NCBI GenBank assembly: GCA_001795735.1
Contig: MGKQ01000001.1
Location: 14,808-78,807, forward strand
Length of the DNA: 64,000 bases
Source of the DNA: Candidatus Yanofskybacteria bacterium RIFCSPLOWO2_02_FULL_41_13
Lineage (GTDB): Bacteria > Patescibacteriota > Minisyncoccia > 2-02-FULL-40-12 > GWA2-44-9
Direction of reading: 5' to 3'
Part shown: in pieces, positions 18,968-53,001 of the stretch
How positions within the stretch are numbered: the first letter of the stretch is position 1
Layout of the letters: each line of letters begins with the position of its first letter
Program-made: the position numbers and the translations under genes
The notes under the pieces: model-generated
The model's input: the letters and a program-made list of their open reading frames with translations, nothing else
What the model was told of the DNA's origin: nothing
Database searches by the model: none

Positions 18968-21133
18968 GTGAGCTCAAAAATGATCCCGCTCAAGATAGCC
19001 GGAGAAAGTCCTCCTTACCCTACAGCGACGAAACCTCCATCAAAAATAATAAAAGTAGGGCAGATTCAGCTAAACACAAGTTTCTCTAATCAATACTATT
19101 TCCCACTCGCCGCCGGGATGAATCAGGCATATGCAAAAAAACATTTACGCTACTCGGATCATTACGAATTTAATGATACGATTTTCAGATTCCCTAAAAG
19201 CAGGAGGGAGATAGATGAAACGGCTGAAAAACTGAGTGAGAACCACCTGCTTCTGGTTGGAAACTACACATGGGGAGAACAGCACTCTTTGGCGTTAGCT
19301 CGTAGATACAAGCAGTACAATCCAAATGGAATTGTCGTCTTTGGAGGACCCCAGGTACCAGATAGCAAAAAACAATTCCGCAGAAACAGAACCATTGAGC
19401 TGACCGAGGAAGAGCAAAAGAGAAAAAGAGTAAGTTTTACGCCAAGCTATCATCACCTTAATCCGTTTATTGATATTTGCGTTCACGGCGAAGGTGAAAG
19501 ATCATTGCGATATGCTCTTGAACAAATGGCAATTGATGGTCTTCAAGACAAGACCGCAATTCCTTCTATCAGCTATATGGATGCGGATGGTAATTTCCGT
19601 TACAATGCCAAGCTTGAAAGAATGAATGATCGGGAGCTAGCCGAAACAGCATCACCATTTACAACTGGCATATTTGATACGCTCATACCGCTCTATCCTG
19701 AACTTGTATTTATAGCAATGTATGAAACGGATCGAGGCTGTCCATTTACTTGTACATATTGCGATTGGGGCGGCGCAACGGAAGACAAGATAAGCCGAAT
19801 GCCCATGGAAATGATCTATCAGGATATTATGTGGATGGGAGAGAGACGGATTCCATACGTATTTTTGTGCAATGCGAATTTCGGAATTCTCGAGCGCGAC
19901 ATACAAATTGCCGAATTTTTTGCCGAAGCGAAAGCTAAGTACGGATTTCCGGAAGCAATCAGCACTCAAAATTCAAAAAACCCCAAAAAGCACACGATTG
20001 AGGCTCTTAAAATTTTGCAGCGGGCCGGCATAAATAAAGCCACTGTGATGTCACAACAATCATTAAACCCTCCCACCCTGAAAGCAGTGAGACGCGATAA
20101 TATGCACCTTGATGAATACTACAAGATCCAGAAAGACTTGGCAGCCGAAGGAATTTATACAATGACTGATCTTATTCCCGGCATGCCGGAAGAGACGTAC
20201 GACACTTTATTTGACGGTATCGTGACGTTGATCACTAATGGCCAGCATAACCGCATCCAATTCAACATTCTTTCCAGACTAATTAATACCGAAATGGCTA
20301 ATGAAGAATATCAGGATTACTACGGATTCCAAACAGTAAAAACTCCGATCATTAATGCCCATGGAAGCAGAGGTGATACGGATACGGGAATCGAGGAACT
20401 GCAAGAGTTTGTTGTCGCAACCAATACTATGCCGCCCGAAGATTGGGTTAAAACATATGTCCTGTGTTGGACTATAAATCTAGTCTACTTCAGTAAACTT
20501 CTCCAGATTCCCATAATAGTTCTTAACAGAGTTTACGGTTTGGACTATCGCAAAATTTTTGAACTATTTCTTGCTGGACAATTCTCGCAATACGGAGATT
20601 TTCCGGTACTATCTGAAATTAATAAATTCCTGACTGAAGTTGGTTCCGGTATACAGAAAGGCGAACGGGGAGAATTTACTTACTCTAAAGAATATCTGAA
20701 TATTTACTGGATGTCAGATGAATATGTATTGATCAAAATGTGCAAAGAAGGAAAAATAGAACAATTTTATGAAGAAGCACATAGGCTGATATCACATCTT
20801 ATTGAACCTCACCAGGACAAGGGACCGCTTGATGAAGCCATTGAGTTAAATAAATCTTTACTGAAACTTCCATTCCAAACGAGCGACCTGGATCTAACTC
20901 TCACATACAGCATCTGGGAGATGTACAAGGCCGTACTTCGAGGCAGAGATGAAGATTTAAAACAGGGACATTATCGATATACGATCGACCGAACCACAAA
21001 AGACGAACGGGGTAGCAATTGGTGGGAATCGTGGGAAGATTGGTACAGACAGATGGTCTGGTACTGTAACCGCCGAGGTGCCTATCTTTATGGTAATGTA
21101 AATCCACATCAAGAGATCGCCGGTCATCATTAA
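18968..21133 (+). CDS. B12-binding-domain radical SAM protein (721 aa; paralog of 13992..16067)
   Basis: CPFTCTYCDWGGATEDK. Co-linear similarity with the other large radical SAM protein, including the C-terminal YxIDRTT...W..W...V.W.C.RRGAYLY region. Confidence 0.8.
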   Translation: MSSKMIPLKIAGESPPYPTATKPPSKIIKVGQIQLNTSFSNQYYFPLAAGMNQAYAKKHLRYSDHYEFNDTIFRFPKSRREIDETAEKLSENHLLLVGNYTWGEQHSLALARRYKQYNPNGIVVFGGPQVPDSKKQFRRNRTIELTEEEQKRKRVSFTPSYHHLNPFIDICVHGEGERSLRYALEQMAIDGLQDKTAIPSISYMDADGNFRYNAKLERMNDRELAETASPFTTGIFDTLIPLYPELVFIAMYETDRGCPFTCTYCDWGGATEDKISRMPMEMIYQDIMWMGERRIPYVFLCNANFGILERDIQIAEFFAEAKAKYGFPEAISTQNSKNPKKHTIEALKILQRAGINKATVMSQQSLNPPTLKAVRRDNMHLDEYYKIQKDLAAEGIYTMTDLIPGMPEETYDTLFDGIVTLITNGQHNRIQFNILSRLINTEMANEEYQDYYGFQTVKTPIINAHGSRGDTDTGIEELQEFVVATNTMPPEDWVKTYVLCWTINLVYFSKLLQIPIIVLNRVYGLDYRKIFELFLAGQFSQYGDFPVLSEINKFLTEVGSGIQKGERGEFTYSKEYLNIYWMSDEYVLIKMCKEGKIEQFYEEAHRLISHLIEPHQDKGPLDEAIELNKSLLKLPFQTSDLDLTLTYSIWEMYKAVLRGRDEDLKQGHYRYTIDRTTKDERGSNWWESWEDWYRQMVWYCNRRGAYLYGNVNPHQEIAGHH

Positions 21134-21179: not shown

Positions 21180-22478
21180 TCAGTAAACCATTCCGTGGTC
21201 TCTAAGATATTGCTGAACCTGACGAATATTGTTTGCAATCTCTTCGCGGCTAAGTGACGGGCCCCAAGGAGTTTCCTTCTCATACTCAAACGGCAGACCG
21301 ACCTCTTCATCATCACCGAAACGAAACATTAGATGGGCATGCTTGGAGAGGTCTTTTTCAATACTCTTAATGCCTAAGGACTTTGCACTCTCATGAAAAA
21401 CAGAGCCGGGCACTACGTCTAGTCCCGAAAGAGCTACATAATCCGGCTTGACTTCTTCAAGGAACCGGATAGTCTTCTCAACTACTTGGTTTGTCTCACC
21501 CGGAAGACCGAAGATAATACAAACCTTTACTTTAATATCGTGCTTCTTTAACAATTCAATAAACCGGCGGTTTGCATCAACACTTTTCGACGGCTTATTT
21601 GATAACTCAAGCACTTTATCAGATTCAACGCTTTCAACTCCTATAGCTAACTCCAGACATCCGCTTTGCCGAGCGAGTTTTATAACTTCTTCCGATCCCA
21701 TTGGTATCGTCTGTCCTCTCCAGACGATGTTTTCGGAAGCAATAGCTTCAAACATGGCAACAGCTTCCTTGCGGTTAACGGGAATACACACCTCATCGCG
21801 CAGGTTAATCCCTTGCACTCCATAGCGCTCTTTCAGATATTTAATCTCGGCCGTAATCTGGTCGGGTCGCCTAAGCTCAAACCTATTCGGATTGTTATAT
21901 ACGCAAAAGCTACAGTGAAAAACACAACCGCGCGAGAAATAAACATTCGTTCCGGGAATCACACCATATTGAGAGAAATGCTTATCATTGACGATCTTGG
22001 AATCAGGGAGAAAATCCCGTTGCGGAAAAGGATATGAAGCAAAATGGAATATCTGATTACTTCTATACACAGGCTGTAAGCGATTAGCACGATAGTCTGC
22101 AAGCGCCTGTAATATCAACTCCTCGCCGCTGCCAACGATTGATGCATCAAAGACGCCGATGCATTCTTCCGTCAAGTGATCGACATGATTGCCACCGGCG
22201 ATATGTACACCGTTGATATGTTTTTGCTTTGTATCTCTGACGATGCCGTATATTTCAGGCGCATCAGCACTCTTCATAATCCAGTAGAAGTAAACGTCTC
22301 TTTCTGGCAGATCAACCCGTCGGCCCTTCGGCCAATCACGCAAATCTATGACATCAACGTTCAGATCCTTATCCCGCTCACGTAAGAAAGTCGCATAATA
22401 AAGTTCCCAAAGCGGCTGTAACTTTGCAGGGTCTTTCCAGTAATGCCAAGATGGCACAACAACAGCAACATTCAGCAT
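21180..22478 (-). CDS. B12-binding-domain radical SAM protein (432 aa)
   Basis: SRGCVFHCSFCVYN CxxxCxxC motif, preceded by a B12-binding-like N-terminal region. Confidence 0.75.
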   Translation of the reverse strand: MLNVAVVVPSWHYWKDPAKLQPLWELYYATFLRERDKDLNVDVIDLRDWPKGRRVDLPERDVYFYWIMKSADAPEIYGIVRDTKQKHINGVHIAGGNHVDHLTEECIGVFDASIVGSGEELILQALADYRANRLQPVYRSNQIFHFASYPFPQRDFLPDSKIVNDKHFSQYGVIPGTNVYFSRGCVFHCSFCVYNNPNRFELRRPDQITAEIKYLKERYGVQGINLRDEVCIPVNRKEAVAMFEAIASENIVWRGQTIPMGSEEVIKLARQSGCLELAIGVESVESDKVLELSNKPSKSVDANRRFIELLKKHDIKVKVCIIFGLPGETNQVVEKTIRFLEEVKPDYVALSGLDVVPGSVFHESAKSLGIKSIEKDLSKHAHLMFRFGDDEEVGLPFEYEKETPWGPSLSREEIANNIRQVQQYLRDHGMVY

Positions 22479-24843: not shown

Positions 24844-25830
24844 ATGCTCGATAATAAGACAATTCTGATAACCGGGGGGACGGGTTCATTCGGCAAAAAT
24901 TTTGCCAAATTTTTACTCAAAAGTAGCGGGCTCAAAAAGCTCATTATTTTCAGCCGAGATGAGTTCAAGCAATACGAGATGCAGAAAGAAATAAGCGATC
25001 CGCGTATACGTTTTTTTATCGGTGATGTTCGGGATTTGCCACGTCTTCAGCGTGCCTTCCATGGTGTTGATATCGTTATCCATGCCGCCGCGCTTAAACA
25101 AGTTCCTACGCTGGAGTACAATCCCTTTGAAGCAGTAAAGACGAATATAATCGGGTCGCAGAATGTAATTGATGCTTCAATTGACCAGAGTGTTTCAAAA
25201 ACACTGCTCATTTCAAGCGACAAGGCTGTTCAGCCAATCAACCTTTATGGGGCGACTAAATTGGCCGCCGAAAAGCTTTTTGTGGCCGCAAACTCTTATA
25301 CATCGCTCACAAAACGTAGTATCTTCAGTGCGGTACGCTATGGTAATGTAATGGGAAGCCGAGGCAGTATCGTTGAGGCGCTTCTTAAAAAACCTGCCGC
25401 AGAAAAGGTATTTATAACCCATCCGGACATGACTCGTTTTTGGCTTACCCTGTCAGAGAGCTTCCACCTTGTTTTATTTGCTATTAAGCATATGGGTGGC
25501 GGAGAAATAATCGTGCCTAAAATTCCCAGCATGAAGATAACCGAACTTTTTGATGCCCTTGCTCCGCGGGCTAAAAAAGTAATCACCGGCATACGACCGG
25601 GAGAAAAAATTCATGAAACGCTTTTAACTGAGCATGAGGCGCGCAATACCATATTAGTAGGGAATCATTTCGTTATTCTTCCTGAATTTACTTCAAAACC
25701 AAAATTTTTCGAACATTACTATACGCTGGGAAGCAAGCTTGATAACCATACTCCCTTCGCCAGTGATAACAACACAGTATGGCTAACCAAAAAAGAACTA
25801 AAATCAAAAATAAAACCGACGCTACTCTAA
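24844..25830 (+). CDS. pseB: UDP-N-acetylglucosamine 4,6-dehydratase (PseB/FlaA1-like short CapD family)
   Basis: KTILITGGTGSFGKNF and overall PseB/FlaA1-type extended SDR of about 330 aa. Confidence 0.75.
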   Translation: MLDNKTILITGGTGSFGKNFAKFLLKSSGLKKLIIFSRDEFKQYEMQKEISDPRIRFFIGDVRDLPRLQRAFHGVDIVIHAAALKQVPTLEYNPFEAVKTNIIGSQNVIDASIDQSVSKTLLISSDKAVQPINLYGATKLAAEKLFVAANSYTSLTKRSIFSAVRYGNVMGSRGSIVEALLKKPAAEKVFITHPDMTRFWLTLSESFHLVLFAIKHMGGGEIIVPKIPSMKITELFDALAPRAKKVITGIRPGEKIHETLLTEHEARNTILVGNHFVILPEFTSKPKFFEHYYTLGSKLDNHTPFASDNNTVWLTKKELKSKIKPTLL

Positions 25831-26939
25831 AACGAAGTCCGATCCCCTATGGTCGACAGAGGATAGGCGCCGATGACATCAGAACAGTTATCAGTGTGCT
25901 CAAATCAGATTGGCTCACTCAGGGCCCTATGGTGAAAAGGTTTGAAGAATCATTAGCTCGTTACTGCGGAGCAAAATTTGCTGTTGCCGTATCCAGCGGT
26001 ACCGCCGCCCTTCATCTGGCGTATTTAGCCGCCGGACTTCAACCCGATGATGAAGTAATAACGACACCGAATACATTCGTTGCCACATCCAATATGCTTT
26101 TAGCCGTAAAAGCTAGGCCAGTTTTTTGCGATATCCGGCTGGATAATTACAACCTTGATGAAACTAAAATAGAATCGCTGATTACCTCCAAAACAAAAGC
26201 TATCGTACCGGTCCACTTCGCCGGACATCCCTGTGAAATGGATAGTATTCTGAGTCTGGCAAAAAAACATAATCTTCTCGTGATTGAAGATGCCTGTCAT
26301 GCATTGGGGGCATCGTATAAAAATACTAAAGTTGGTGGTATCGGAGATATGACTGTTTTTAGCTTTCATCCGGTCAAATCTATTACCACCGGCGAGGGAG
26401 GAGCAATACTAACAAACAATAAAAACTTTTATGAAAAATTATTATTATTAAGGTCTCACGGCATAACAAAGGATAAAAATGGATTCAATGTTATGGCCGA
26501 GCTGGGACATAATTACCGAGTTACGGATATTCAAGCAGCGCTTGGCTTAAGTCAGCTTAAGAAGCTAGATGGATTTATTAAAAAAAGAAGTGAGCTTATG
26601 TCCGGATATTATAGAGAGTTAAAAGATGTGAAGAATATCATACTCCCGAGAATAACTGAAAACATAATTTCCGCCGGTCATATTTTTATTATAAGAGTCA
26701 AAGACCGGGCAAAAAGGCTAAAATTGATGGAATTCCTAAAAAATAATGGCATCGGGGTTAACTTTCACTATCCGGCCGTTTACTCTCATCCTTATTACAG
26801 ACAGAATGGATATGACGGACTAACACTAGACAACGAGGAGATATATAGCAGTTCGTGCGTCACTCTCCCCCTCTACCCGAACTTAAAACTAGAAAGTATA
26901 GAGTATATCTGCGATAAAATAAAAACTTTTTTCAAATGA
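25779..26939 (+). CDS. pseC: DegT-family sugar aminotransferase with canonical Lys (PseC-like UDP-4-amino-4,6-dideoxy-sugar transaminase)
   Basis: IPYGRQ.I...D...WLTQG N-terminus and FSFHPVKSITTGEGG. Exact start uncertain (overlaps the pseB 3' end). Confidence 0.75.
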   Translation: MANQKRTKIKNKTDATLKRSPIPYGRQRIGADDIRTVISVLKSDWLTQGPMVKRFEESLARYCGAKFAVAVSSGTAALHLAYLAAGLQPDDEVITTPNTFVATSNMLLAVKARPVFCDIRLDNYNLDETKIESLITSKTKAIVPVHFAGHPCEMDSILSLAKKHNLLVIEDACHALGASYKNTKVGGIGDMTVFSFHPVKSITTGEGGAILTNNKNFYEKLLLLRSHGITKDKNGFNVMAELGHNYRVTDIQAALGLSQLKKLDGFIKKRSELMSGYYRELKDVKNIILPRITENIISAGHIFIIRVKDRAKRLKLMEFLKNNGIGVNFHYPAVYSHPYYRQNGYDGLTLDNEEIYSSSCVTLPLYPNLKLESIEYICDKIKTFFK

Positions 26940-27571
26940 TAAAATCAACTGCTCAGGAAAAATTTTGGTCATCGGAATTCGGCAAGGAATATATGGAAAG
27001 AAACACCCTTTCTCTGCAGGAGTTGAATAAACTTTATACAACGAACTTCGGCGTATCCCGTTCACGAATTAATAAAGATTTCCTGGGGAAATTAAAAATA
27101 GGAAACATTTTAGAGATTGGATGCAACGTCGGAAACCAATTAGCACTGCTCCAAGAAGAGGGTTTTAAGAATTTATATGGCATAGAAATATTTCCGAAGG
27201 CTGTAGAGCTGGCTAAAACCCACACCAAAAGTATCAATATAGTTCAGGGAAGCGGATTTGACCTCCCGTTTAAAGATAATAGCTTTGACCTTGTATTTAC
27301 TGCCGGGGTACTGATCCACATAAGTCCAAAAGATATAAAAAAAATCATGAAGGAAATACATCGGGTCAGTAAAAAGTACATCTGGGGATTTGAGTATTTT
27401 AGTCCAGACCACATTGCCATTCCCTATCGGGGCAATAAGGACCGGCTCTGGAAAGGTGACTTTGCTAAAATGTATACGAGCCAGTTCCCTGATCTAAAAT
27501 TAGTGAAGGAAAAAAGATATAAATACCTCCAAAACGACAACCTTGATTGTGGATTTCTATTAAAAAAATGA
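26936..27571 (+). CDS. class I SAM methyltransferase (pseudaminic-acid-biosynthesis-associated-methylase-like)
   Basis: ILEIGCNVGNQL motif I. ATGA overlap with the aminotransferase gene. Position inside the Pse-like module. Confidence 0.65.
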   Translation: MIKSTAQEKFWSSEFGKEYMERNTLSLQELNKLYTTNFGVSRSRINKDFLGKLKIGNILEIGCNVGNQLALLQEEGFKNLYGIEIFPKAVELAKTHTKSINIVQGSGFDLPFKDNSFDLVFTAGVLIHISPKDIKKIMKEIHRVSKKYIWGFEYFSPDHIAIPYRGNKDRLWKGDFAKMYTSQFPDLKLVKEKRYKYLQNDNLDCGFLLKK

Positions 27572-29388
27572 GAACATATTTACTGTTCGAGATAGCCAAC
27601 TCCCACGGAGGGTCGAAGGATTATGTATATAAGCTGATAGACGCCCTTCCGCAGGGAAAAAATACCCGCCTTCGCCAAGGCTTCGGCGGGCAAGCCGGGA
27701 TAAAGTTCCAGGTTTTTAAATATGACCAGCTCGCCCTAAAAGATTATGAATGGTACAAGGTTTACGTAAAATTATTTTTCGATAAGGCCAGCTGGAAGAA
27801 GATACTGTTATACACTAAAGGCAAGGGTTTTGATATTTGGATAGACGTTTTTGACTTATATAGTGTCGAAGTGCTTAAGGATAATTTAAATTTAGTTACC
27901 GGCATAAAACTTCAGTCTTCCGTACTGGATAATCTTAGGGTCCTAAAAGGTCTTTCGGAGGTCATAAGGGGCAAGAAGATTAAAGTTATTCTAAATGTTG
28001 CCGGAAGAGAGATAGATAACATAAAAGAAATCCTGACCGATATTAGAGCCGGCTACTTTAGTAACGAGATAATGCTTCAGTGCGGATTCCAGGCCTATCC
28101 GACCGACGCCGAAGACCTGACGATACACAAAATACATGTTTTAAAGTCGGAATTTCCGGACCTAGTCGTATCTTATGCTGACCATGTTGACGGCAAGTCT
28201 CCCCTAGCCTTTGATGTTCCCGTTTTTGCAGTTCTGGCCGGAGCGGGACACATTGAAAAGCATGTCTGCCTGGACAGAAAAAAAACTAAATATGATTTTC
28301 AATCTGCAGTAGAGCCTCATGAACTCACCCTATTGCTATACAAACTAAAGGAGTGCGAAAAAATATTAGGAACAAAACTTATATCCGAAAAAGAGGCAAA
28401 CTATCTTAAGACGACAATAGAAAAACCAATAACTTCCGTTGATATAAGGGCGAGAGATGTTATAAATCTCAAAAATTTCGATTTCAGACGAACTTCTCAG
28501 GAAGGGCTAACTGTCGGCGAGTTGAAAGAAATGATGAAGAAAAGATATGTATTCAGCAAAGACGTTAAGACAGGACAAACAATAAAAAAAAGTAGTTTGA
28601 AAAAGGCGAGGATAGGGGTGCTAATCGCTTGCCGGATGAAATCAACCAGACTAAAGCACAAGGCCGTACTTCCTATCGGTAAATTCAGCTCGATAGAAAG
28701 ATGCATAATAAATGCAAAGAAAATAAAATCAGCTGATGAAATAATCTTAGCCACATCTGCCTTAGCCGAAGACCAGATCCTTAAAAAATATGCCTTGAAG
28801 CACAAGATAAGATTTTTTGCCGGAGACCCGGAAGATGTAATCGCAAGATTTTTGGGGGCTACAGAAAAATACAACTTGGATATAGCTATCAGAGTTACCG
28901 GCGATTGTCCGATAGTTTCATACGAAATGGCTGAGTTTATACTTCAAAGACATTTTGAAAAAGGCAATGACTATACCGGACCAAAAGCGTTCGCCGTCGG
29001 CCAGAATAGCGAAATATACAGCGTAAACACCTTAAAGAGGGTGCTAGAATACTTGGGCGACGCCAGACATTCAGAATATATGACCTGGTACATGCTGACC
29101 AATAAAGACATATTTCAAGTGGATATGGCTGAATTACCGAAAGAATGGGTACGGAACTATCGCCTAACCCTTGATGTTCAGGAAGACCTTGATATGTTCA
29201 ACGCACTGTTTGAGAAGCTTGGAATCAAGGAACCAAGTATAAAAAATGTGTTTGATGTTATCGATAAGAATCCAAGGATACACGAACTCAATGACGCCAT
29301 CGGCTTAAAATACAAAACTGACCAGAAATTAATAGACTTATTAACTAGAGAAACTAAAATTAATCCCCCTAGACCCAAACGACTATGA
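27568..29388 (+). CDS. two-domain protein: N-terminal NeuB/PseI-like TIM-barrel domain fused to C-terminal acylneuraminate cytidylyltransferase-like (PseF/SpsF-like) domain
   Basis: N-terminal LLFEIANSHGG resembles the NeuB family. C-terminal IGVLIACRMKSTRLKHKAVLPIG resembles CMP-sugar synthetases. ATGA-coupled start at 27568. Confidence 0.6.
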   Translation: MRTYLLFEIANSHGGSKDYVYKLIDALPQGKNTRLRQGFGGQAGIKFQVFKYDQLALKDYEWYKVYVKLFFDKASWKKILLYTKGKGFDIWIDVFDLYSVEVLKDNLNLVTGIKLQSSVLDNLRVLKGLSEVIRGKKIKVILNVAGREIDNIKEILTDIRAGYFSNEIMLQCGFQAYPTDAEDLTIHKIHVLKSEFPDLVVSYADHVDGKSPLAFDVPVFAVLAGAGHIEKHVCLDRKKTKYDFQSAVEPHELTLLLYKLKECEKILGTKLISEKEANYLKTTIEKPITSVDIRARDVINLKNFDFRRTSQEGLTVGELKEMMKKRYVFSKDVKTGQTIKKSSLKKARIGVLIACRMKSTRLKHKAVLPIGKFSSIERCIINAKKIKSADEIILATSALAEDQILKKYALKHKIRFFAGDPEDVIARFLGATEKYNLDIAIRVTGDCPIVSYEMAEFILQRHFEKGNDYTGPKAFAVGQNSEIYSVNTLKRVLEYLGDARHSEYMTWYMLTNKDIFQVDMAELPKEWVRNYRLTLDVQEDLDMFNALFEKLGIKEPSIKNVFDVIDKNPRIHELNDAIGLKYKTDQKLIDLLTRETKINPPRPKRL

Positions 29389-30548
29389 AACTAAAATACT
29401 GCACAAAATGTGTAATGCCAGCCACAAAACCCGATCTTTTTTTTGATAAGGATGGGGTATGCGACGCATGCAGATCAGCAGAACTCAAATATGACAAAAT
29501 AAAGGGTATCGACTGGAATGCCCGACGCAAAGAATTTGAGCGCATTATCGAAAAGTACCGCTCCAAGGACGGAAAAAATTATGATTGCATCATTCCTGTC
29601 AGTGGCGGCAAAGATAGCCACTACCAAACTTATATCATGAAGGTGGTTTACAAAATGAATCCCCTTCTTGTTTGCTTTGAACAAACAAAAATCAGCGAAT
29701 TGGGCAAAAAGAATATGGAAAATATCAGGAAATTCGGGTGCGACATGATATATTTTAAGAAAAATCCGGAAGTATACCGAAAATTGGAGGTAGAAGGATT
29801 AAAACGAGTCGGCGACAACGACTGGCCGAATCATGTAGGCTGTTTTACTATTCCCGTAAGAGTAGCCGTTCAATTCAACATACCTTTGCTTATCTGGGGA
29901 GAAAATTCCCAGCTGGAATACGGCGGGCCGGCAACGGCCAGGGAGAAAAATTACCTTGATCGTAGATGGATGGAAGAATTCACCCTTTTAGGTAATCGTG
30001 TCGAGGACATGATAGGCGTAGATGGAATAACCAAAGAAGATATGCTCATCTACACTTATCCGGACGACAAAGACTTGAAGCGAGTCGGCGTTACGGGTCT
30101 TTTTTTAGGTTATTTTTTCTTGTGGGATCAGCGCAAGCAAGTAGAGCTCATAAGAAAGAAGTATGGATTCAATATAAAAGAAGATGGCCCCATAGAGGGA
30201 ACGTACACGAACTACGAGAATCTTGATGATGCAACCGTGGGACTGCATGATTACCTTAAATTCACTAAGTATGGTTTTGGCCGGGGAACAGATCATGCAT
30301 GTACCGATATCCGGAACGGCCGGATAACCAGAGAAGAGGGACTGGATCTTGTACGAAAATATGATGGCAAATATCCTTATTACGGAGTAAAAAGCTTCTG
30401 TGAAATGTCGGGCATGAGCAAGAAAGAGGTTGATAAATATATTGATTCTTTCACTAATAAGCAGATATTCAAAATGGATAAAAGAGGTAAGTTTTTACGT
30501 GATATGGCGGGTAATCTAATAAAAAATAACTATGACAACGAGCTTTAA
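29385..30548 (+). CDS. N-acetyl sugar amidotransferase (PP-loop ATPase; WbpG/WbuX/PseA-like)
   Basis: CTKCVMP zinc ribbon and PP-loop IIPVSGGKDS. Followed by HisH/HisF paralogs, as in acetamidino-sugar pathways. Confidence 0.8.
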   Translation: MKLKYCTKCVMPATKPDLFFDKDGVCDACRSAELKYDKIKGIDWNARRKEFERIIEKYRSKDGKNYDCIIPVSGGKDSHYQTYIMKVVYKMNPLLVCFEQTKISELGKKNMENIRKFGCDMIYFKKNPEVYRKLEVEGLKRVGDNDWPNHVGCFTIPVRVAVQFNIPLLIWGENSQLEYGGPATAREKNYLDRRWMEEFTLLGNRVEDMIGVDGITKEDMLIYTYPDDKDLKRVGVTGLFLGYFFLWDQRKQVELIRKKYGFNIKEDGPIEGTYTNYENLDDATVGLHDYLKFTKYGFGRGTDHACTDIRNGRITREEGLDLVRKYDGKYPYYGVKSFCEMSGMSKKEVDKYIDSFTNKQIFKMDKRGKFLRDMAGNLIKNNYDNEL

Positions 30549-31149
30549 AAAAGTTGTTATCATTGATTACCAGATGGGTAATGTAGCATCGGTTATTAAG
30601 GCATTCGAGAAGCTAGGAGCAAAGATTAAATTATCCCGAAATAAAAATGATATAGAAAAAGCTGAATATCTTGTCTTGCCCGGGGTAGGAGCTTTCGGAG
30701 ATGGAATGAAGAATCTCAAACAGTTTGGAATAATTGATGTTCTCTCACGGCAAGTAAAGAAAGGCGTGCCATTTCTAGGTATTTGCCTGGGGATGCAATT
30801 GTTAGCTGAGCGAGGTTATGAATTCGGAGAGTGCAAGGGTCTTGGCTGGATAAAAGGCAAGGTAATAAAACTCAAATCTCCCACCGTACCCCATATCGGC
30901 TGGAACGATGTGAGGGTAACTAAAAATAAAAAAATTCTAAGCAATCTGCCTGATAATAATTTTTACTTTATCCACAGTTATTTTTTAAAACCCAACAACA
31001 AGTCGATAATAGCAGCTACTTGCAAACATGGACATGAGTTTACCGCCGCCATAGAACAAGGAAATATTTGGGGCACCCAGTTCCATCCCGAAAAAAGCCA
31101 GTCAAGCGGACTGAAGGTCTTGGATAACTTCCTGAACTACCATGCTTAA
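30532..31149 (+). CDS. hisH: imidazole glycerol phosphate synthase HisH-like glutamine amidotransferase (WbuY-like)
   Basis: VIIDYQMGNVASV...GICLGMQ...HPE class I GATase. Confidence 0.8.
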   Translation: MTTSFKKVVIIDYQMGNVASVIKAFEKLGAKIKLSRNKNDIEKAEYLVLPGVGAFGDGMKNLKQFGIIDVLSRQVKKGVPFLGICLGMQLLAERGYEFGECKGLGWIKGKVIKLKSPTVPHIGWNDVRVTKNKKILSNLPDNNFYFIHSYFLKPNNKSIIAATCKHGHEFTAAIEQGNIWGTQFHPEKSQSSGLKVLDNFLNYHA

Positions 31150-31915
31150 AACCAGAGTGATGCCCTGCATGCTTTTCAATGGCCTGCATTTGATAAAGAC
31201 TATACAATTCGACCAGATCAGAAACCTTGGAAATCCGGTCCAAATGGCCAGAGTATACAATTCGCGCAACGTTGATGAACTTATATTTATAGACATGAAA
31301 GCGACTGAAGAAGACAGACCTCCAGCTTATGAAATTATAAAAGATATAATTGCCGAATGCTTTATGCCTTTAACCGTTGGAGGAGGAATTCATTCCATAG
31401 AAGTTATTCATAGATTACTAAAAATCGGAGCTGATAAAGTATGCATAAATTCCGAGGCCATAAATAATCCCGCCTTTGTGACTGCCGCCGCAAAAAAATT
31501 TGGAAGCCAATGCATCGTGATAAGTATTGACGTTAAACAAGTCCGTAAAGACCACTATGTTTTTAAATCGCGGGGACGAGAAAATACAAACATAACCGTA
31601 ATCGAATGGGTTAAACAGGTAGAGAAACTAGGCGCCGGAGAGATATTCCTTACTTCAATCGACAAAGATGGAACCATGGATGGATACGATTTGGACCTCA
31701 TAAAAAAAGTTAGCTCCGCCGTGTCAGTTCCTGTCATTGCCTGTGGTGGAGCAGGCAAAGTCCAGGATATAATTGATGCAGTAAAACTCGGTGGCGCTGA
31801 TGCCATATCGCTTGCCAGCATCTTCCATTATGGGGGTCACACGCCAAACAGCATAAAGCAAAGAATGTATAATGCCGGAATACCCGTAAGATTCATTGAC
31901 AAGAACCAAATATAA
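31142..31915 (+). CDS. hisF: imidazole glycerol phosphate synthase HisF-like cyclase subunit (WbuZ-like)
   Basis: RVMPCML...VGGGI...ADKV TIM-barrel HisF pattern. Confidence 0.8.
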   Translation: MLKTRVMPCMLFNGLHLIKTIQFDQIRNLGNPVQMARVYNSRNVDELIFIDMKATEEDRPPAYEIIKDIIAECFMPLTVGGGIHSIEVIHRLLKIGADKVCINSEAINNPAFVTAAAKKFGSQCIVISIDVKQVRKDHYVFKSRGRENTNITVIEWVKQVEKLGAGEIFLTSIDKDGTMDGYDLDLIKKVSSAVSVPVIACGGAGKVQDIIDAVKLGGADAISLASIFHYGGHTPNSIKQRMYNAGIPVRFIDKNQI

Positions 31916-31923
31916 AATATAAT

Positions 31924-32580
31924 ATGATTCAGTACTTTAATATCCGAGGGACTATGATTAAAAAAATTGACATCATAACCGTACTTGGCGGAAGTTTATT
32001 TAAAGAAGCTGACGGCAATTGGAGAACCACGAGCTTTGAGGATCTCCAACATAATGGCGCGGCGGGCATGGGTGACAATCTGCGAGTTATTGCCGGAAAT
32101 TTACTTTTTCAGACGCTACATCGAAAATTGCCTGGCTCAGTTCTGGTATCTGGAGGAAGAGGCAAAAATTGTAACGATTCGGCTAAACCAACGGTATCTT
32201 CTATTATGAAGAAAGAACTTATAGCACTTGGCCTTCCGGGAAAATTCATAGCCGAAGACCCTCATTCTAATTCTACTTATGCTCAACTTCTCTGGTTAAG
32301 CAAGTATATGAACAATAAAACTGGCATAGTCGGCATAGTATCAAATGAGTACCATTTGCCACGAATACAGGCATTTATTGACTGGCGGCCGGAATTAAAT
32401 CTGTTATGTGATAGGGCCGCCTTAATATCTGCCGAGCAAATCCTTACCGCTAAAGATCCTAAAAAATGGCGTGAGAAAATAAGCGATGCTTATAGAACCA
32501 GCGCGATGCAGGATATTATAGCCCGCGAAAAAAACGGAATTGAGAATATCAAGAAGGGGCAATACAAATTTTATGTCTAA
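31924..32580 (+). CDS. DUF218 (YdcF/SanA-like) domain protein
   Basis: VSGG...AEDPHSNSTYAQ...HLPR pattern of DUF218. Confidence 0.55.
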   Translation: MIQYFNIRGTMIKKIDIITVLGGSLFKEADGNWRTTSFEDLQHNGAAGMGDNLRVIAGNLLFQTLHRKLPGSVLVSGGRGKNCNDSAKPTVSSIMKKELIALGLPGKFIAEDPHSNSTYAQLLWLSKYMNNKTGIVGIVSNEYHLPRIQAFIDWRPELNLLCDRAALISAEQILTAKDPKKWREKISDAYRTSAMQDIIAREKNGIENIKKGQYKFYV

Positions 32581-33313
32581 GGCAAATAACTTATTTATAA
32601 TTTTCGGGACATCCAGGGGTCTGGGCTTTGCCTTGTGCAATTATATATTGCAATTCTCCCATAATGATATTCTGGCGATAGACAGGAGAAAGCTACCGGG
32701 CATTTCTTCTGGTCGCCTCCAAAGAACTATTATTGACTTATCTAAACCTCTCTCGCCAACTGCAATATCAGGTCTACTTCGTTCTTCACTCCTAAAAAAT
32801 TATAAGAACCTGTATCTCATAAATAACGCTTCCCTTCTGGAGCCGATAGGTCCCGCCGGTAAGGTTAATACAGTTGAACTAACACGGCTAGCCAGTGTTA
32901 ATTTTCTGAATTATGCCGTTATTATTAACGAGTTCATGAGACGAACTAAAAATCTGAGAGCGCGCAAAAGAATACTTAATGTCACTTCAGGCGCTTCTGT
33001 TCATCCCCAGTATGGCCTAGCGGGATACTGCAGTACAAAAGCTGCGCTTGAAATGTTTGGAAGCTGTATCTTTCTAGAGCAACAGGTGCTTAATCAGGTA
33101 GAGATTATGTCTTTTAGGCCGGGCGTTATAAATACGGATATGCAAAAAAAACTACGGGAAAGCTCGGGGGCAAATTTTCTGAATAATAAGGTTCATCAGG
33201 AATTGTATACAAAAAATGCCCTACTTACTCCCGAATACGTAGCAAAAATAATGTACGGTACTTTAACTGCCCGTAAAAAATGGGCTGAGCCAATTTTAGA
33301 TTTAAGTATATGA
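32573..33313 (+). CDS. short-chain dehydrogenase/reductase
   Basis: FIIFGTSRGLGFAL. Start set at the ATG overlapping the upstream stop. Confidence 0.7.
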   Translation: MSKANNLFIIFGTSRGLGFALCNYILQFSHNDILAIDRRKLPGISSGRLQRTIIDLSKPLSPTAISGLLRSSLLKNYKNLYLINNASLLEPIGPAGKVNTVELTRLASVNFLNYAVIINEFMRRTKNLRARKRILNVTSGASVHPQYGLAGYCSTKAALEMFGSCIFLEQQVLNQVEIMSFRPGVINTDMQKKLRESSGANFLNNKVHQELYTKNALLTPEYVAKIMYGTLTARKKWAEPILDLSI

Positions 33314-34344
33314 TCAAAGCTCTTGTTACTGCATGCGGCGGAGATATAGGGCAAGGGGTCATAAAATCCCTTCGAATGTCCGGTGAAAAAATAAGAGTCA
33401 TCGGCACCGAAATCACAGCTGACAATTGCGGATTATTTATGGCTGACAAAGGTTATATACTTGAACCGGTTCTTAAAAATGAGAAAAGATACCTGAAGCA
33501 GTTAGTTGCCATATGTAATGAGGAACGGGTCGATATCGTATTTGTATGTTTTGAAGCCGAACAATCTGCCATTGCCAGCGCGATAAATATACTAAATAAA
33601 AAAACAGGGGCTTACTTTGTAGTTCAGTCCAAAAAGACTTTAGATATCTGTCAGGAAGACAAATCGCTCACATACGCATTTCTGTCTAAGCGGGGCATCC
33701 GAGTACCCGAAACCTACACGACAAAGAAAATGGCTGAAATATTGATTAAAAAGTATGGTTGGCCTATTATTCTTAAGCCTAGACAGAGTTCCGGATCAAG
33801 AGATGTACACATAATCCGTACACGAAAAGAGCTTGATATCTTATGGGATAAGATAGACAAGCCCTTGATCCAAGAATACATCAACAACGGTCAGGATGAC
33901 GAATATACAGTCGGTGTCTTCTTAAATAAGGATTCCGAGGCCCTAGGAGCAATTGCTATGTTAAGAAAACTAAAACTGGGAATGACTTGGCATGCGATAG
34001 TCAATCATTACCCGGACATAGAGGAGATCGCCGGAAAGACCGCAGAGAGCGTAGGCGCAATAGGACCATGTAATATACAAATTCGAAGAGATAGAAACAA
34101 CAAGCCATGCGTCATAGAGATAAACGCCAGAATCTCAAGTACCACTGTATTCAGAGCAAAATTAGGATTTAACGAGGCCCTGGCATCTATAGACTATTTC
34201 TTAAAAGGTAAGATACCTAAGCTAAGTCACAGACCGGCCGTAATAATGCGTACATTTGGTGAGTATATAGTTCCATTAGATAAATATCTAAAAATTAAAT
34301 CGAAAAATATTACTAATGCAAATGAAAAGTATGAAACCAATTAG
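33310..34344 (+). CDS. ATP-grasp domain protein (carboxylate-amine ligase-like)
   Basis: Pre-ATP-grasp N-terminal domain, then WPIILKPRQSSGSRDV...EYIN and EINAR ATP-grasp motifs. ATGA-coupled. Confidence 0.65.
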   Translation: MIKALVTACGGDIGQGVIKSLRMSGEKIRVIGTEITADNCGLFMADKGYILEPVLKNEKRYLKQLVAICNEERVDIVFVCFEAEQSAIASAINILNKKTGAYFVVQSKKTLDICQEDKSLTYAFLSKRGIRVPETYTTKKMAEILIKKYGWPIILKPRQSSGSRDVHIIRTRKELDILWDKIDKPLIQEYINNGQDDEYTVGVFLNKDSEALGAIAMLRKLKLGMTWHAIVNHYPDIEEIAGKTAESVGAIGPCNIQIRRDRNNKPCVIEINARISSTTVFRAKLGFNEALASIDYFLKGKIPKLSHRPAVIMRTFGEYIVPLDKYLKIKSKNITNANEKYETN

Positions 34345-35398
34345 TATTGAAACAAGGGGGGGCATAAGGCACATAGGGCCAGGCTACCCCTCTTTTATTG
34401 TCGCCGAACTATCAGGAAACCATAGCCAATCATACAAAACTGCCTGCAAAATTATTGACGCGATAGCAGACACAGGCGCCGATGCCGTAAAACTCCAGAC
34501 TTACACCGCCGATACGATGACCATCGATTCGGATAAAAAATACTTTAAACTGACAGGGAGCAAGCTTTGGAAAGGAGAGACGCTCTATGGTCTATATAAA
34601 AAAGCATCTACTCCCTGGGACTGGCATCCGAGATTAAAAAGCTACGCCGAGAAGAGAGGCCTTGTATTTTTTTCCACTCCTTTTGACAATACCGCTGTTG
34701 ATTTTTTAAAAAAAATGAATGTTCCTCTTTACAAGGTCGCCTCATATGAACTGACCGACACTCCCTTGCTCCAAAAAATTGCCAGTACAAAAAAGCCTGT
34801 TATTTTGTCCAGGGGCATGGCTTCAATCAAAGAAATAGGCCTAGCTATAAATACATTAAGAAAATACGGAACGAGACAAATCGCAGTATTGCATTGCATA
34901 AGTTCATATCCTACAGACCCAAAGGATATGAATCTTAGAACTATTCCTGACATAATGAGTAGATTCCGGGTTATTTCTGGATTGTCGGACCACAGCATTA
35001 CCAACAATGCTGCTATCGCCTCCATAGCCCTGGGAGCAAGCATCATTGAAAAGCATATTACCCTGAACCGCCACGACAAAGGAGTCGATTCTAAATTTTC
35101 TTTGGAACCACATGAATTTAAAGATCTCGTTAAAGCAGTGAGGGAGACGGAGAATGCTTTGGGCAAAATACATTATGCTACAACGCTCTCAGAGATAAAT
35201 GACAAATTATATCGTCGGTCTTTATTCATAACCAAGAGCATTCGGAAGGGAGAAAAATTTACCAAAAATAACACCAGGATAATTAGACCCGGTTACGGCC
35301 TAGCACCAAGATACTTCAGTATGGTAATCGGGAAAAAAGCTAAGAAAAATATAGAGAGGGGGACTCCCCTGACCCGGAGACTCATCTTGTCAAAATAG
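34316..35398 (+). CDS. pseI: nonulosonic acid synthase (NeuB/PseI family) with C-terminal SAF domain
   Basis: AELSGNHSQSYKTACKIIDAIADTGADAVKLQTY...LHCISSYP plus C-terminal SAF-like region. Confidence 0.8.
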   Translation: MQMKSMKPISIETRGGIRHIGPGYPSFIVAELSGNHSQSYKTACKIIDAIADTGADAVKLQTYTADTMTIDSDKKYFKLTGSKLWKGETLYGLYKKASTPWDWHPRLKSYAEKRGLVFFSTPFDNTAVDFLKKMNVPLYKVASYELTDTPLLQKIASTKKPVILSRGMASIKEIGLAINTLRKYGTRQIAVLHCISSYPTDPKDMNLRTIPDIMSRFRVISGLSDHSITNNAAIASIALGASIIEKHITLNRHDKGVDSKFSLEPHEFKDLVKAVRETENALGKIHYATTLSEINDKLYRRSLFITKSIRKGEKFTKNNTRIIRPGYGLAPRYFSMVIGKKAKKNIERGTPLTRRLILSK

Positions 35399-35450: not shown

Positions 35451-36362
35451 ATGTCTGATTTAACAGCATTTCGACAACCTCTTCCGGGCGTATTACGCAT
35501 AGAGCCTGCATCAGCCTGCAATTTTAAATGCATCCACTGCCCAACCGGCCTAGGTATGAATCCGGATACGGGGATCATGACTGAAGAGACTTTTTCCGGT
35601 ATTCTTAGCCGAATTAAGCATTTACAATTCCGCGTTATTGTTCTCTACCATGGAGGCGAACCTTTGCTGAATCCCAGGTTTGCTGAAATGATCAAACGTG
35701 TCAGGCCTTACACTAAATTCATAAAAACGGTTACTAATGGTTCCATTTTGACTCAACGTCGTATAGATGAGATACTGGCAAGCGATCTTGATCTGATTGA
35801 GGTATCTATTGATGGCGATTCGCCGGAAGAGAACGATCAAATACGCAAGAACGCAAAATGTGAAAAAATCATTACTGCCGTTAAAGCAATTATTGATACT
35901 AAAAGGCGCCTAGGCCTGGACAGGCCCAAGGTGAATATTGGCAATGTGCGTATTCCGGGTTCAAATACCAATACCAACCTACCTCCAGACGTACCAGAGT
36001 TTTTAAAAAAAGCTTTTGTAGGTTACGAACAGGACATCATGTTTCGTATGTATTATGCTTTAGTCTGGGCAAATATGATAGGCAGTGAAAATAAAATTCC
36101 TGAAAATAACTATTGTGACAACGTGGTGAATACCATCACTGTTCGCCATAATGGAGACGTGGTGCCATGCTGTTACGATTTGACCAGCTCCATGGTCATG
36201 GGCAACCTCCTTACTGAATCCCTTGAGAGTATCTGGAACAATGACCGCTATTTAAAACTTAGGGCGGCTATCGCAAATTTTCAGCCGCCAGCCCCGTGCC
36301 AAAACTGCCTAGTTCTATATCCTTCCCGCCACTTAAAATCCAGTGAAATCAGCCTGGTATGA
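35451..36362 (+). CDS. radical SAM protein with C-terminal Cys-rich SPASM-like region
   Basis: ASACNFKCIHCP motif, C-terminal CCYDL...C..CQNC. AAGGAG SD. Confidence 0.7.
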   Translation: MSDLTAFRQPLPGVLRIEPASACNFKCIHCPTGLGMNPDTGIMTEETFSGILSRIKHLQFRVIVLYHGGEPLLNPRFAEMIKRVRPYTKFIKTVTNGSILTQRRIDEILASDLDLIEVSIDGDSPEENDQIRKNAKCEKIITAVKAIIDTKRRLGLDRPKVNIGNVRIPGSNTNTNLPPDVPEFLKKAFVGYEQDIMFRMYYALVWANMIGSENKIPENNYCDNVVNTITVRHNGDVVPCCYDLTSSMVMGNLLTESLESIWNNDRYLKLRAAIANFQPPAPCQNCLVLYPSRHLKSSEISLV

Positions 36363-36365: not shown

Positions 36366-37259
36366 ATGCAGCGCGCACTATGCGCGCTTTTAATTCTAAA
36401 TAAAAAGATTCCGATGAATCCGATACGATCGATTAAAAAAATAGCTTTGCAGTATCAACTATATTTTAAATATCGTGATATGCTAGCAAAGAATAAAAAG
36501 CTTAAAAATACCGAGAGCAAGCGGTGTTTTATTATAGGTACCGGACCCTCTGTTAAAGACCAGGACTTATTGCGCTTAAAAGATGAGGATACATTTGTAG
36601 TAAACTCTTTTTGGAATCACCCGCAATATAAAGAAATAAACCCTAAGTACTACGTGATGATAGATTGGGATATATTCCCTGTCGGTGATCAAAAAGGTAA
36701 TTTCGTATCAGATGAAGTTATACAAAAGCAAGAACTGTTGAATTCTTGCTCAACTAAATTCTTCTTTCACTCATTCGGCAAAGAATTTATAGAAAAAAAC
36801 GGGCTCCTGCAGAATAACAGAATCTACTACCTAATGAACCATGGGGTAATGGATGAAAAATTAAAATTCAACATTGATATAGAAAAGGTTATTCCATACA
36901 CAAAAAACGTAATTGTAGCTTCAATAATGATTGCTGCCTACATGGGCTTTGAGGAAATATACCTTCTCGGCTGTGAACATGACTACCTGGCATATCCGGC
37001 ACAGAAGTACTACGAGAAGTTTCCCCATTTTTTTAAAAATCCCTACGAGCTTAGCAATAAAAAATCATCGAGTTATTATATTATGGCCGTTATGCCGTAT
37101 GAAAAACATATTTACAACTCTCTTATTTTATTTAGGAACTACCGCCTGCTGAAAGAGAAGCTGAGCAGAGAAAAACCTAATCTTAAGATTTATAATGCCA
37201 CACCCAATAGTTATTTAGACGTATTTCCGATGGTTAAATATGAGGACATTATTCTCTAA
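36366..37259 (+). CDS. DUF115 (Maf / motility-accessory-factor-like, MptE-like) protein
   Basis: CFIIGTGPSV...FVVNSF pattern as in the DUF115 domain of Maf proteins. Confidence 0.5.
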   Translation: MQRALCALLILNKKIPMNPIRSIKKIALQYQLYFKYRDMLAKNKKLKNTESKRCFIIGTGPSVKDQDLLRLKDEDTFVVNSFWNHPQYKEINPKYYVMIDWDIFPVGDQKGNFVSDEVIQKQELLNSCSTKFFFHSFGKEFIEKNGLLQNNRIYYLMNHGVMDEKLKFNIDIEKVIPYTKNVIVASIMIAAYMGFEEIYLLGCEHDYLAYPAQKYYEKFPHFFKNPYELSNKKSSSYYIMAVMPYEKHIYNSLILFRNYRLLKEKLSREKPNLKIYNATPNSYLDVFPMVKYEDIIL

Positions 37260-40818: not shown

Positions 40819-40829
40819 TAAATGCTGGA

Positions 40830-52545: not shown

Positions 52546-53001
52546 TTAACTTTTCATAATATATCCCCACTTAGATTCGAGAAAATGACGCTGTTCTTCA
52601 ATGATATTGTCGGGTAAAGATTTGAATATCTTTATTTCTGACGAATCCTCATTCGGTTTCATTAAAGTAGCTTCTGCCAAGCACAAAAAGACCAAACCCA
52701 CGCTAAAGCCGAATCCTCTTTCTTTCTCTTCACTATCATAATCAATATACCCAAGCAGTTCTCGGATGCTAACCTCAATTCCAAGCTCTTCAGCCGCCAC
52801 CCTTTTTACTGCATCCGTAACTTTCTCTTTGTAAAAAACAGTTCCGCCAGGAATATGCCATTTGCCGCGATATGAAGGTAATTTTCTCAATGAAAGAATA
52901 ACGCCTTCAGGAGTTTTCACGACTAGCTCAACGCAAAGACGAGGTACTCTGGAATAAATATTTTTAAACTCCTCGTGCGAAAACGGCTTATTATTGCCCA
53001 T
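52546..53001 (-). CDS. NUDIX hydrolase
   Basis: Nudix box GGTVFYKEKVTDAVKRVAAEELGIEV. Confidence 0.8.
   Translation of the reverse strand: MGNNKPFSHEEFKNIYSRVPRLCVELVVKTPEGVILSLRKLPSYRGKWHIPGGTVFYKEKVTDAVKRVAAEELGIEVSIRELLGYIDYDSEEKERGFGFSVGLVFLCLAEATLMKPNEDSSEIKIFKSLPDNIIEEQRHFLESKWGYIMKS

Follow-up and report, generated by a model that had tools for sequence, protein, structure and literature searches.

A NeuB-like module fused to an SpsF-type cytidylyltransferase: a putative non-canonical CMP-pseudaminic acid synthetase

Pseudaminic acid (Pse) decorates flagella, pili, S-layers, and capsules, and its biosynthetic pathway is both an anti-virulence drug target and a tool for the chemoenzymatic synthesis of CMP-Pse. 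In the textbook pathway, the last step is catalyzed by the NeuA-like cytidylyltransferase PseF (HP0326 in Helicobacter pylori, Cj1311 in Campylobacter jejuni). Here we describe a 606-amino acid (aa) protein in which a NeuB-like module is fused to an SpsF-type cytidylyltransferase. It is encoded in a Pse cluster on a 64-kb stretch (64,000 nucleotides, hereafter the window) of contig MGKQ01000001.1 from Candidatus Yanofskybacteria bacterium RIFCSPLOWO2_02_FULL_41_13. The closest arrangement on record is found in Bacillus subtilis, where SpsE and SpsF, two separate proteins of the same two families (a legionaminic acid synthase and a putative CMP-legionaminic acid synthetase), stand side by side. 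The fusion is probably the CMP-Pse synthetase of its cluster (PseF step), non-canonical and attached to a probably non-condensing NeuB paralog. A literature search found no published description of a NeuB–cytidylyltransferase fusion.

Nonulosonate synthases (NeuB, PseI, and LegI; PF03102; 1XUZ, 8H2C) consist of a TIM barrel and a SAF domain. They share with the N-terminal half of the fusion (N half) the manganese-binding histidine pair as well as K53, K129, Q55, Y186, D247, and R314 in the numbering of NeuB from Neisseria meningitidis (NmNeuB), but the identity amounts to about 19 to 25%, and the fusion scores four to five times below the cut-offs of the synthase equivalogs. SpsE, a stand-alone protein whose active site is entirely canonical, is the only synthase of its pathway, whereas the fusion occurs together with a canonical PseI. 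In a B. subtilis spsF mutant, legionaminic acid is made but not transferred, as expected without CMP activation (PMC7439481). PseF shares the CTP_transf_3 fold, the P-loop, and the acidic motifs with the C-terminal half of the fusion (C half), and both take the same operon slot, with the same predicted reaction, as sole cytidylyltransferase. PseF lacks, however, the 345-aa NeuB-like module, and the fusion lies outside the PseF equivalog TIGR03584. In functional terms, the fusion is best regarded as a PseF analog; in sequence terms, its C half falls outside the PseF family and its N half outside the synthase equivalogs.

The joining of a CMP-nonulosonate synthetase with a domain from an enzyme of a neighboring step is also seen in CMAS and NeuA. 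Vertebrate CMAS carries a degenerate, inactive phosphatase-like C domain that serves oligomerization, and NeuA from Escherichia coli K1 and group B Streptococcus is a CMP-sialic acid synthetase with an esterase domain. The analogy is functional only, as these accessory folds differ from that of the fusion and flank the catalytic domain on its opposite side. In the spiro-SPASM proteins (TIGR04321), an SpsF-like domain is combined with a radical S-adenosylmethionine (SAM)/SPASM part, a partner that differs from the NeuB-like module. The fusion does not belong to this family, since it scores 32.5 bits against a cut-off of 250 and contains no radical SAM domain in its chain.

Architecture and gene context of the fusion

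The fusion is encoded by one continuous open reading frame (ORF) that begins with the ATG at 27568 and ends with the TGA stop codon at 29386-29388 (Table 1). Alignment places the start of the homologs at this ATG and not at the TTG at 27547, where the mechanically called ORF begins. ATGA overlaps connect both ends of the gene to its neighbors, upstream to the stop codon of the methylase gene and downstream to the start codon of the WbuX-type amidotransferase gene, an arrangement typical of translationally coupled operons. Pfam NeuB matches residues 45-270 (E 4e-24, 85.7 bits, gathering cut-off 22.1), and Pfam CTP_transf_3 (PF02348) matches residues 351-544 (E 9e-22, 78.3 bits, cut-off 22.6). 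The alignment with TIGR03569 spans residues 5-338, corresponding to model positions 3-328 of 329. Because it extends to the end of the model, the N half includes a SAF-like domain, and Pfam SAF matches the equivalent region in the relatives P0358, P0349, and P0255. The linker between the SAF domain and the strand that leads into the P-loop comprises about 3 residues.

An AlphaFold model computed with 107 homologs as input reaches a pLDDT of 93.5 and a pTM of 0.77. In Foldseek comparisons, the N half superposes on entire NeuB, PseI, and “SpsE” chains over about 355 columns with a target-normalized TM-score (TMt) of 0.69-0.84, and the C half (residues 348-573) superposes on the 250-aa protein 6OEW with a TMt of 0.88. 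By sequence, the best match among solved structures is SpsE (1VLI) for the N half and the SpsF-like 6OEW for the C half (E 6e-24). 6OEW is a cytidylyltransferase from Leptospira borgpetersenii that was deposited as a structural-genomics entry and is not known to have been characterized functionally. Unlike the fusion, it is a stand-alone protein without a NeuB-like domain.

The initial annotation of the window had recognized two NeuB-family modules, the second of which was described as divergent and fused to an SpsF-like cytidylyltransferase in an SpsE/SpsF-like pairing within a single polypeptide. Pfam, TIGR03569, the 25% identity between the two modules, and the best matches 1VLI and 6OEW bear this out, and the structure prediction that it had proposed returns a complete NeuB-type N half and a 6OEW-like C half. 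The stand-alone gene at 34316..35398 is indeed a canonical synthase with both Pfam NeuB and SAF domains. Crediting the SAF domain to this enzyme alone was too narrow, as the fusion has one as well. The proposed resemblance of the C half to PseF/SpsF holds for the SpsF/6OEW side but not for the PseF equivalog. The initial annotation also overlooked that the fusion holds the sole cytidylyltransferase of the window, in the pseF slot of the operon, and that such fusions are very common.

Table 1. Features of the fusion gene and of the Pse cluster in the window (positions in the window; bit scores are followed by the model cut-off)
Feature	Position	Strand	Basis
PseB, UDP-GlcNAc 4,6-dehydratase, inverting	24844..25830	+	TIGR03589, 423 bits (408)
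PseC aminotransferase	25779..26939	+	TIGR03588, 448 bits (423.5)
Pse-associated methyltransferase	26936..27571	+	TIGR03587, 200 bits (112)
Fusion gene, 606 aa: NeuB-like module and SpsF-type cytidylyltransferase	27568..29388	+	Continuous ORF
NeuB-type TIM barrel with remodeled phosphoenolpyruvate (PEP) subsite, residues 1-270	27568..28377	+	Pfam NeuB (PF03102), residue comparison, codons verified
SAF/antifreeze-like domain, residues 285-345	28420..28602	+	TIGR03569 alignment, Foldseek, invariant R308
SpsF/6OEW-type cytidylyltransferase domain, residues 348-606	28609..29388	+	Pfam CTP_transf_3, 6OEW match
CTP-binding P-loop ACRMKSTRLKHK	28627..28662	+	A354, R356, K358, S359, R361, L362, K365 invariant
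RVTGDCP motif	28891..28911	+	R442, T444, D446 invariant; counterpart of QGDEP in CMP-Kdo synthetase
LTLDVQED motif	29164..29187	+	L535, D536, D540 invariant; L533, T534, E539 in at least 90%
Acetamidino modification set: WbuX/PseA-type N-acetyl-sugar amidotransferase, HisH-like, WbuZ/HisF-like	29385..31915	+	
Variable tailoring genes between fusion and PseI: DUF218 protein, short-chain dehydrogenase/reductase (SDR), ATP-grasp ligase	31924..34344	+	
Canonical PseI (NeuB + SAF)	34316..35398	+	TIGR03586, 465 bits (340); catalytic residues all canonical

A Pfam scan of every large ORF finds the sole CTP_transf_3 domain of the window in the fusion, and no ORF in the window matches the PseF model of NCBIfam. 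The fusion is followed by the acetamidino set (amidotransferase starting at 29385, HisH-like at 30532, WbuZ/HisF-like at 31142) and the tailoring genes (DUF218 at 31924, SDR at 32540, ATP-grasp ligase at 33310), and PseI is followed by a radical SAM/SPASM gene at 35451 and an MptE/Maf-like gene at 36366. In Clostridium, pseF genes have been recognized via sps homology and have a methyltransferase gene directly upstream (PMC13317340), as does the fusion in the window.

Gene context was compared in related loci. Of the species-representative genomes that were scanned, 163 contain the fusion architecture, and loci were retrieved for 80 of them. Counts refer to 62 non-redundant loci with at least 3 kb of upstream and at least 7 kb of downstream sequence, in which ORFs were called and searched with the window proteins; references for PseG, GNAT, and NeuA-like proteins were drawn from the related loci themselves. 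The 62 loci stem from the Candidate Phyla Radiation (CPR), Bacteroidota, Proteobacteria, Firmicutes, Acidobacteria, and other phyla, and their typical gene order is pseB-pseC-[fusion]-(pseG/acyl genes)-pseI. A PseI-type synthase lies near the fusion in 59 loci, PseB and PseC in 50 each, and PseG in 41, with PseC immediately upstream of the fusion in 32. Two of the 62 loci (L030 and L037) contain a NeuA-like cytidylyltransferase, each time beside a second, non-PseI NeuB-type synthase, and none contains another SpsF-like gene; 60 loci thus hold no candidate for a second cytidylyltransferase besides the fusion. Since PseI is present almost throughout and another cytidylyltransferase is so rare, the fusion fills the pseF slot of the classical pseB-pseC-pseF-pseG-pseH-pseI series. 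The most clear-cut example is the locus of Geosporobacter ferrireducens, which encodes two PseB-family dehydratases, PseC, the fusion, a PseH-like GNAT protein, PseI (468 bits), and PseG (236 bits), and therefore all steps of the Pse pathway but PseF. An Akkermansiaceae locus is organized along the same lines, its tailoring genes being those of a formyltransferase and an ATP-grasp enzyme. The tailoring genes beside the fusion vary from locus to locus, covering acetamidino, formyl, ATP-grasp, and plain acetyl types. Taken together, the loci indicate that a large, phylogenetically broad set of Pse clusters uses the two-module protein in the PseF position.

Some loci depart from the typical content. 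In L003 (626..1324), L030 (1713..2501), and L037 (20947..21660), a NeuA-like cytidylyltransferase and a second NeuB-type synthase form a second nonulosonate pathway alongside the fusion-bearing Pse cluster. In about a dozen loci of Flavobacteriales/Crocinitomicaceae (L040, L046-L048, L054-L057, L061, L063, L069, and L073), PseB directly precedes the fusion, and PseC is detected neither between the two nor elsewhere in the flanks. L063 departs in part from this pattern, as it has a weaker PseC-type gene downstream of PseI.

Active sites of the two halves

The C half contains the motifs of the CTP_transf_3 superfamily, namely the R-x-x-S-x-R-L-x-x-K P-loop and the G-D-x-P acidic motif. Its P-loop ACRMKSTRLKHK aligns with PARYGSSRLPGK of the E. 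coli CMP-Kdo synthetase 1GQ9. Invariance was counted over 107 fusion homologs with 40-83% identity (Table 1). The LTLDVQED motif is presumably the second acidic motif typical of CMP-sugar-acid synthetases, going by what is known of KdsB and NeuA. The C half looks catalytically competent because of the invariant P-loop and acidic motifs, the alignment to CMP-Kdo synthetase, and its predicted 6OEW-like fold. Among the NCBIfam cytidylyltransferase models, KdsB subfamilies score best on the fusion, at about 37 bits, and a hidden Markov model (HMM) built from the NeuA-like neighbors detects the C half merely at E ~0.01. Annotation assigns it to the SpsF/COG1861-like branch, with the homolog P0101 carrying the JGI label “SpsF ... 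/ sialic acid synthase.”

For the N half, active-site residues were compared between 107 fusion N halves, 67 PseI proteins from the same loci, NmNeuB, PseI from C. jejuni, and SpsE from B. subtilis. In NmNeuB, the carboxylate of PEP is held by K53 and K129, manganese is bound by H215 and H236, the sugar is contacted by Q55, Y186, D247, and R314, and the phosphate of PEP is bound by S132, S154, S213, and N184 (PMC11339185, quoting Gunawan et al. 2005). The three serines are fully conserved among working synthases (PMC11339185). The metal, carboxylate, and sugar ligands are all retained in the fusion, where K53 and K129 correspond to K46 and K114, the two histidines to H206 and H232 (invariant in the 107 homologs), Q55, Y186, and D247 to Q48, Y177, and D243, and the SAF arginine R314 to the invariant R308. 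E25 (E8 in the window), H30 (H13), and E234 (E230) are likewise kept, as are F112 and D214 when the 67 PseI proteins are compared with the 107 N domains. The alignment against NeuB active-site residues that the initial annotation had suggested therefore finds the metal histidines and both glutamates, E8 and E230, in place.

The phosphate side of the pocket is altered. S154 is replaced by asparagine (N143) and S/N184 by glutamine (Q175) in all 107 homologs, and S213 by alanine (A204) in 106; S132 has become alanine in 73 and is kept as serine in 23. E134 is changed to valine or isoleucine (V119 in the window; 106/107), T/S110 to aspartate (D93; 107/107), and C182 to glycine (G173; 107/107). In the PseI proteins from the same loci, by comparison, S132 is kept in 66 of 67 and E134, S154, and S213 in all; E134 is invariant across these 67, NmNeuB, C. 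jejuni PseI, and SpsE. The scores of the fusion lie far below the cut-offs of the synthase equivalogs (TIGR03569, 99.4 vs 399.65; TIGR03586, 67 vs 340.25). The simplest reading of these sequences is a conserved pocket with a rebuilt phosphate corner, which would bind a metal and a carboxylated sugar but would not carry out a PEP condensation. The mean pairwise identity across 36 genomes is 0.42 for the N half, 0.55 for the C half, 0.54 for PseI, 0.52 for PseC, and 0.63 for PseB. The N half is thus less constrained than its cluster partners, which fits an accessory role better than a core catalytic one. The best fold match, 3G8R, was considered as a protein with the same signature and rejected, since it keeps T110, S132, S154, and S213 and hence represents a different subfamily.

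Proposed role of the fusion and competing explanations

In the favored assignment as a CMP-Pse synthetase, the C half would convert free Pse, or a local N-acyl variant of it, and CTP to CMP-Pse and pyrophosphate, as its motifs and gene context suggest. The N half would be an ancient paralog of the nonulosonate synthases that has kept the TIM barrel and the domain-swapping SAF domain with its arginine. It would no longer condense PEP with a hexose, a step that would be left to PseI; no condensation is expected because the PEP-phosphate ligands and E134 are exchanged for other family-invariant residues. The N half more likely binds the keto-acid sugar or its precursor beside the cytidylyltransferase. 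Its role may, as a matter of speculation, lie in substrate capture and hand-off from PseI, in providing a sugar-binding or dimerization platform for the SpsF-type domain, or in sensing. Substitution for a missing pathway enzyme was considered and rejected, for PseI owing to its presence in nearly all loci and for PseG because it stands beside the fusion in two thirds of them (41/62), Geosporobacter included.

Several points weigh against this assignment. The fusion has no match to TIGR03584 at E≤0.01 in NCBIfam, the function of SpsF-type enzymes is backed by genetics and not by enzymology, and a canonical PseF could sit beyond the 64-kb window or the 10-kb flanks of the related loci. As all metal, carboxylate, and sugar ligands are kept, the N domain may still be catalytic: the amides of N143 and Q175 could still hold a phosphate, and the aspartate at position 110 could be a relocated acid that offsets the loss of E134, which would allow PEP-dependent or other catalysis. 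The putative PseF of Tannerella forsythia, Tanf_01200, scores 37 bits to Cj1311, lies in the gene order pseB-pseC-(hypothetical)-pseF, and was inactive on Pse5Ac7Ac in vitro (PMC5378307, PMC6120980). If it belonged to the fusion family, the simple assignment of Pse and CTP as substrates may be incomplete. Tanf_01200 is a possible member and a lead only; a homology search seeded with a Bacteroidales sequence did not list it among the best 120 matches.

The initial annotation had offered two options for the N half, the channeling of nonulosonate synthesis directly into CMP activation or catalytic degeneration, and the evidence favors neither in its pure form. A second working Pse synthase is unlikely because the PEP-phosphate serines and E134 are lost and a canonical PseI co-occurs in 59 of 62 loci. 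Degeneration is correct insofar as synthase residues are gone, yet the N half has not simply decayed, as its pocket is strongly conserved and carries family-specific invariant replacements. A truly bifunctional enzyme, in which the N half is an active synthase for Pse or a differently acylated precursor and feeds the fused cytidylyltransferase, is improbable. It would draw on the invariance of the metal histidines, both carboxylate lysines, E25, E234, D247, Y186, Q55, and the SAF arginine, on the entire NeuB fold predicted with high confidence, and on the chance that asparagine and glutamine at the former serine positions bind phosphate while D93 stands in for E134. These features are opposed by the exchange of S154 and S213 in practically every homolog (S132 in most) and of E134 for valine or isoleucine, by equivalog scores of 99 against 400 and 67 against 340, by the lower constraint on the N half than on PseI, and by the loci themselves, none of which among the 62 has the fusion replacing PseI with the rest of the pathway kept.

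The NeuB-like module might also be no relic but a functional partner that SpsF-type cytidylyltransferases need, a possibility that we raise tentatively. As the adaptor of a channeling complex, the module would bind the nonulosonate via the retained metal/lysine/arginine pocket and offer it to the CTP site. It might also dock on PseI by NeuB-type domain swapping, which would unite synthase, adaptor, and activating enzyme in one complex. Alternatively, it may perform an unrecognized metal-dependent step on Pse ahead of activation. A more specific form of the latter, an N half with new, non-condensing chemistry on Pse or a precursor just before CMP activation (e.g., metal-dependent isomerization, epimerization, ring-opening, or a pyruvate-type aldol step), seems unlikely. 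The family-invariant replacements D93, N143, G173, Q175, and A204 around the retained metal site do not resemble random decay, and the N-like module persists stand-alone and in several fusions, always in nonulosonate contexts; the inactivity of the T. forsythia protein would also fit an extra requirement, provided that it is a family member. Against this, the Pse pathway runs to completion in vitro with six enzymes and no such step (PMC5378307, PMC7910423), no specific modification correlates with the module, given the very different tailoring genes between loci, and the N module is under weaker constraint than the genuine enzymes of the cluster.

That two adjacent spsE-like and spsF-like genes have been misread as one is extremely improbable. 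N-like proteins of 330-345 aa do exist in the protein databases, and in one marine lineage (P0234, 12 contigs) the N-like and SpsF-like genes are genuinely separate, within a cluster of a canonical-type synthase, the SpsF-like cytidylyltransferase, and a PseG-like gene. This arrangement shows that the N-like domain and the cytidylyltransferase are separable modules but does not undo the fusion in the window. In each of the 83 related loci, which come from independent genomes, a single ORF without internal stops spans the two halves, and this excludes a gene-calling artifact as their source; the reading frame in the window is continuous, the SAF domain passes into the P-loop strand within about 3 residues, and the identical protein is found on 18 contigs and recorded from Candidatus Yanofskybacteria metagenome-assembled genomes (CPR). 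An apparently split ortholog, P0236 (L087 6001..7781), was rejected as a stand-alone N-like protein, since its fusion gene is broken by a 1-nt frameshift at a GGCCGGCCG run on a contig with 0.66x coverage, where PseI is fragmented as well. Of the two shorter proteins examined for the two-gene arrangement in orthologs that the initial annotation had named as the test of the fusion, P0236 is thus a frameshifted fusion, and P0234 of the marine lineage shows the arrangement.

Should the assignment of the fusion as a CMP-Pse synthetase be true, the “missing pseF” and the “second neuB” would be one and the same gene, pathway prediction would improve, and caution would be due against counting two synthases in fusion-bearing clusters. 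The fusion would also be a clean test case of a synthase paralog recruited to the next enzyme of its own pathway. If the N module is necessary for activity, the reconstitution of CMP-Pse derivatives from the host organisms would be affected. If the module is a functional partner, a second, widespread route of CMP-Pse formation would exist, which could explain the in vitro inactivity of the T. forsythia putative PseF, should that protein turn out to be a member.

Distribution and further features of the window

The fused architecture occurs in at least 856 protein clusters (90% identity, E≤1e-30). Its hosts comprise CPR, Bacteroidota, Alpha-, Beta-, Gamma-, and Epsilonproteobacteria, Firmicutes, Acidobacteria, Omnitrophota, Brocadia, Margulisbacteria, and Mariprofundus as well as the methanogens Methanospirillum and Methanococcus voltae. 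The database names are generic (“N-acetylneuraminate synthase family protein,” “cytidylyltransferase domain-containing protein,” “PseI/NeuA/B-like domain-containing protein”) or misleading (“N,N'-diacetyllegionaminate synthase”). The fusion family is widespread and misannotated and has apparently gone unstudied.

Counting one representative per 50%-identity cluster, an exhaustive search with the N half alone returns 734 proteins at E≤1e-10, of which 81 reach E≤1e-30. Among these best 81, 42 have the length of the fusion (560-640 aa) and 18 about 335 aa, and the rest are fragments or larger. The metal, lysine, and arginine set is present in all inspected N-like relatives, as is an acidic residue in place of T110; V/I119 and N143 characterize a nearer clade, and D119 and S/G143 a farther one. 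The unit of N-like domain and cytidylyltransferase is also part of larger fusions (P0245, P0255, P0282, P0358, P0373), whose types include a GNAT domain in front (747 aa), a canonical NeuB in front (963 aa), an additional N-terminal CTP_transf_3 match (842 aa), and a trailing GT2 glycosyltransferase (about 1045 aa). As the N-like module thereby co-occurs with synthase, cytidylyltransferase, and transfer domains, the domain combinations suggest a physical hand-off or complex.

Despite its canonical PseB, PseC, and PseI, the window shows no PseG or PseH in searches with the NCBIfam models and with HMMs derived from the related loci (42 PseG and 34 GNAT sequences). The DUF218 gene of the window (31924..32580) has counterparts between fusion and PseI in the CPR loci L005, L007, and L008, in which PseG is also absent, and DUF218 might replace PseG in CPR organisms. 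A NUDIX hydrolase gene (52546..53001, − strand) inside the glycan locus, beside a DegT aminotransferase, is another candidate for the missing nucleotide-sugar hydrolase. The MptE/Maf-like (DUF115) gene at 36366..37259 (+ strand) accompanies the Pse genes, as it does in L005, L007, and L008, and lies upstream of PseB in many Flavobacteriales loci; its family comprises flagellin nonulosonate glycosyltransferases. The N part of TIGR04321 matches residues 360-572 of the fusion, and its middle radical SAM part matches the product of 35451..36362 (+ strand; 64.9 vs 250). On a short metagenome contig (L088 38..2045), a radical SAM/SPASM gene is immediately followed by a distantly related N-like gene that stands alone. 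These observations hint at a functional link between the SpsF-like, N-like, and radical SAM/SPASM modules.

Four large radical SAM genes are scattered in the sugar-biosynthesis region of the window (13992..16067, −; 18968..21133, +; 21180..22478, −; 44136..45710, −). Two of them carry a Pfam B12-binding domain, and all four match models of the B12-dependent radical SAM methyltransferase type, which suggests unusual C-methylated sugars. Directly after the glycan genes, the region 40135..43977 (−) encodes an 808-aa CotH-kinase/beta-helix protein followed by VTC-domain and DUF4956 genes. Among the nucleotide-sugar genes are further a split transketolase, E1-dehydrogenase alpha/beta subunits, and an acetolactate-synthase-like thiamine pyrophosphate (TPP) enzyme (5454..7221, −; 8569..10567, +; 54438..56294, +), which may attach two-carbon branches to a sugar.

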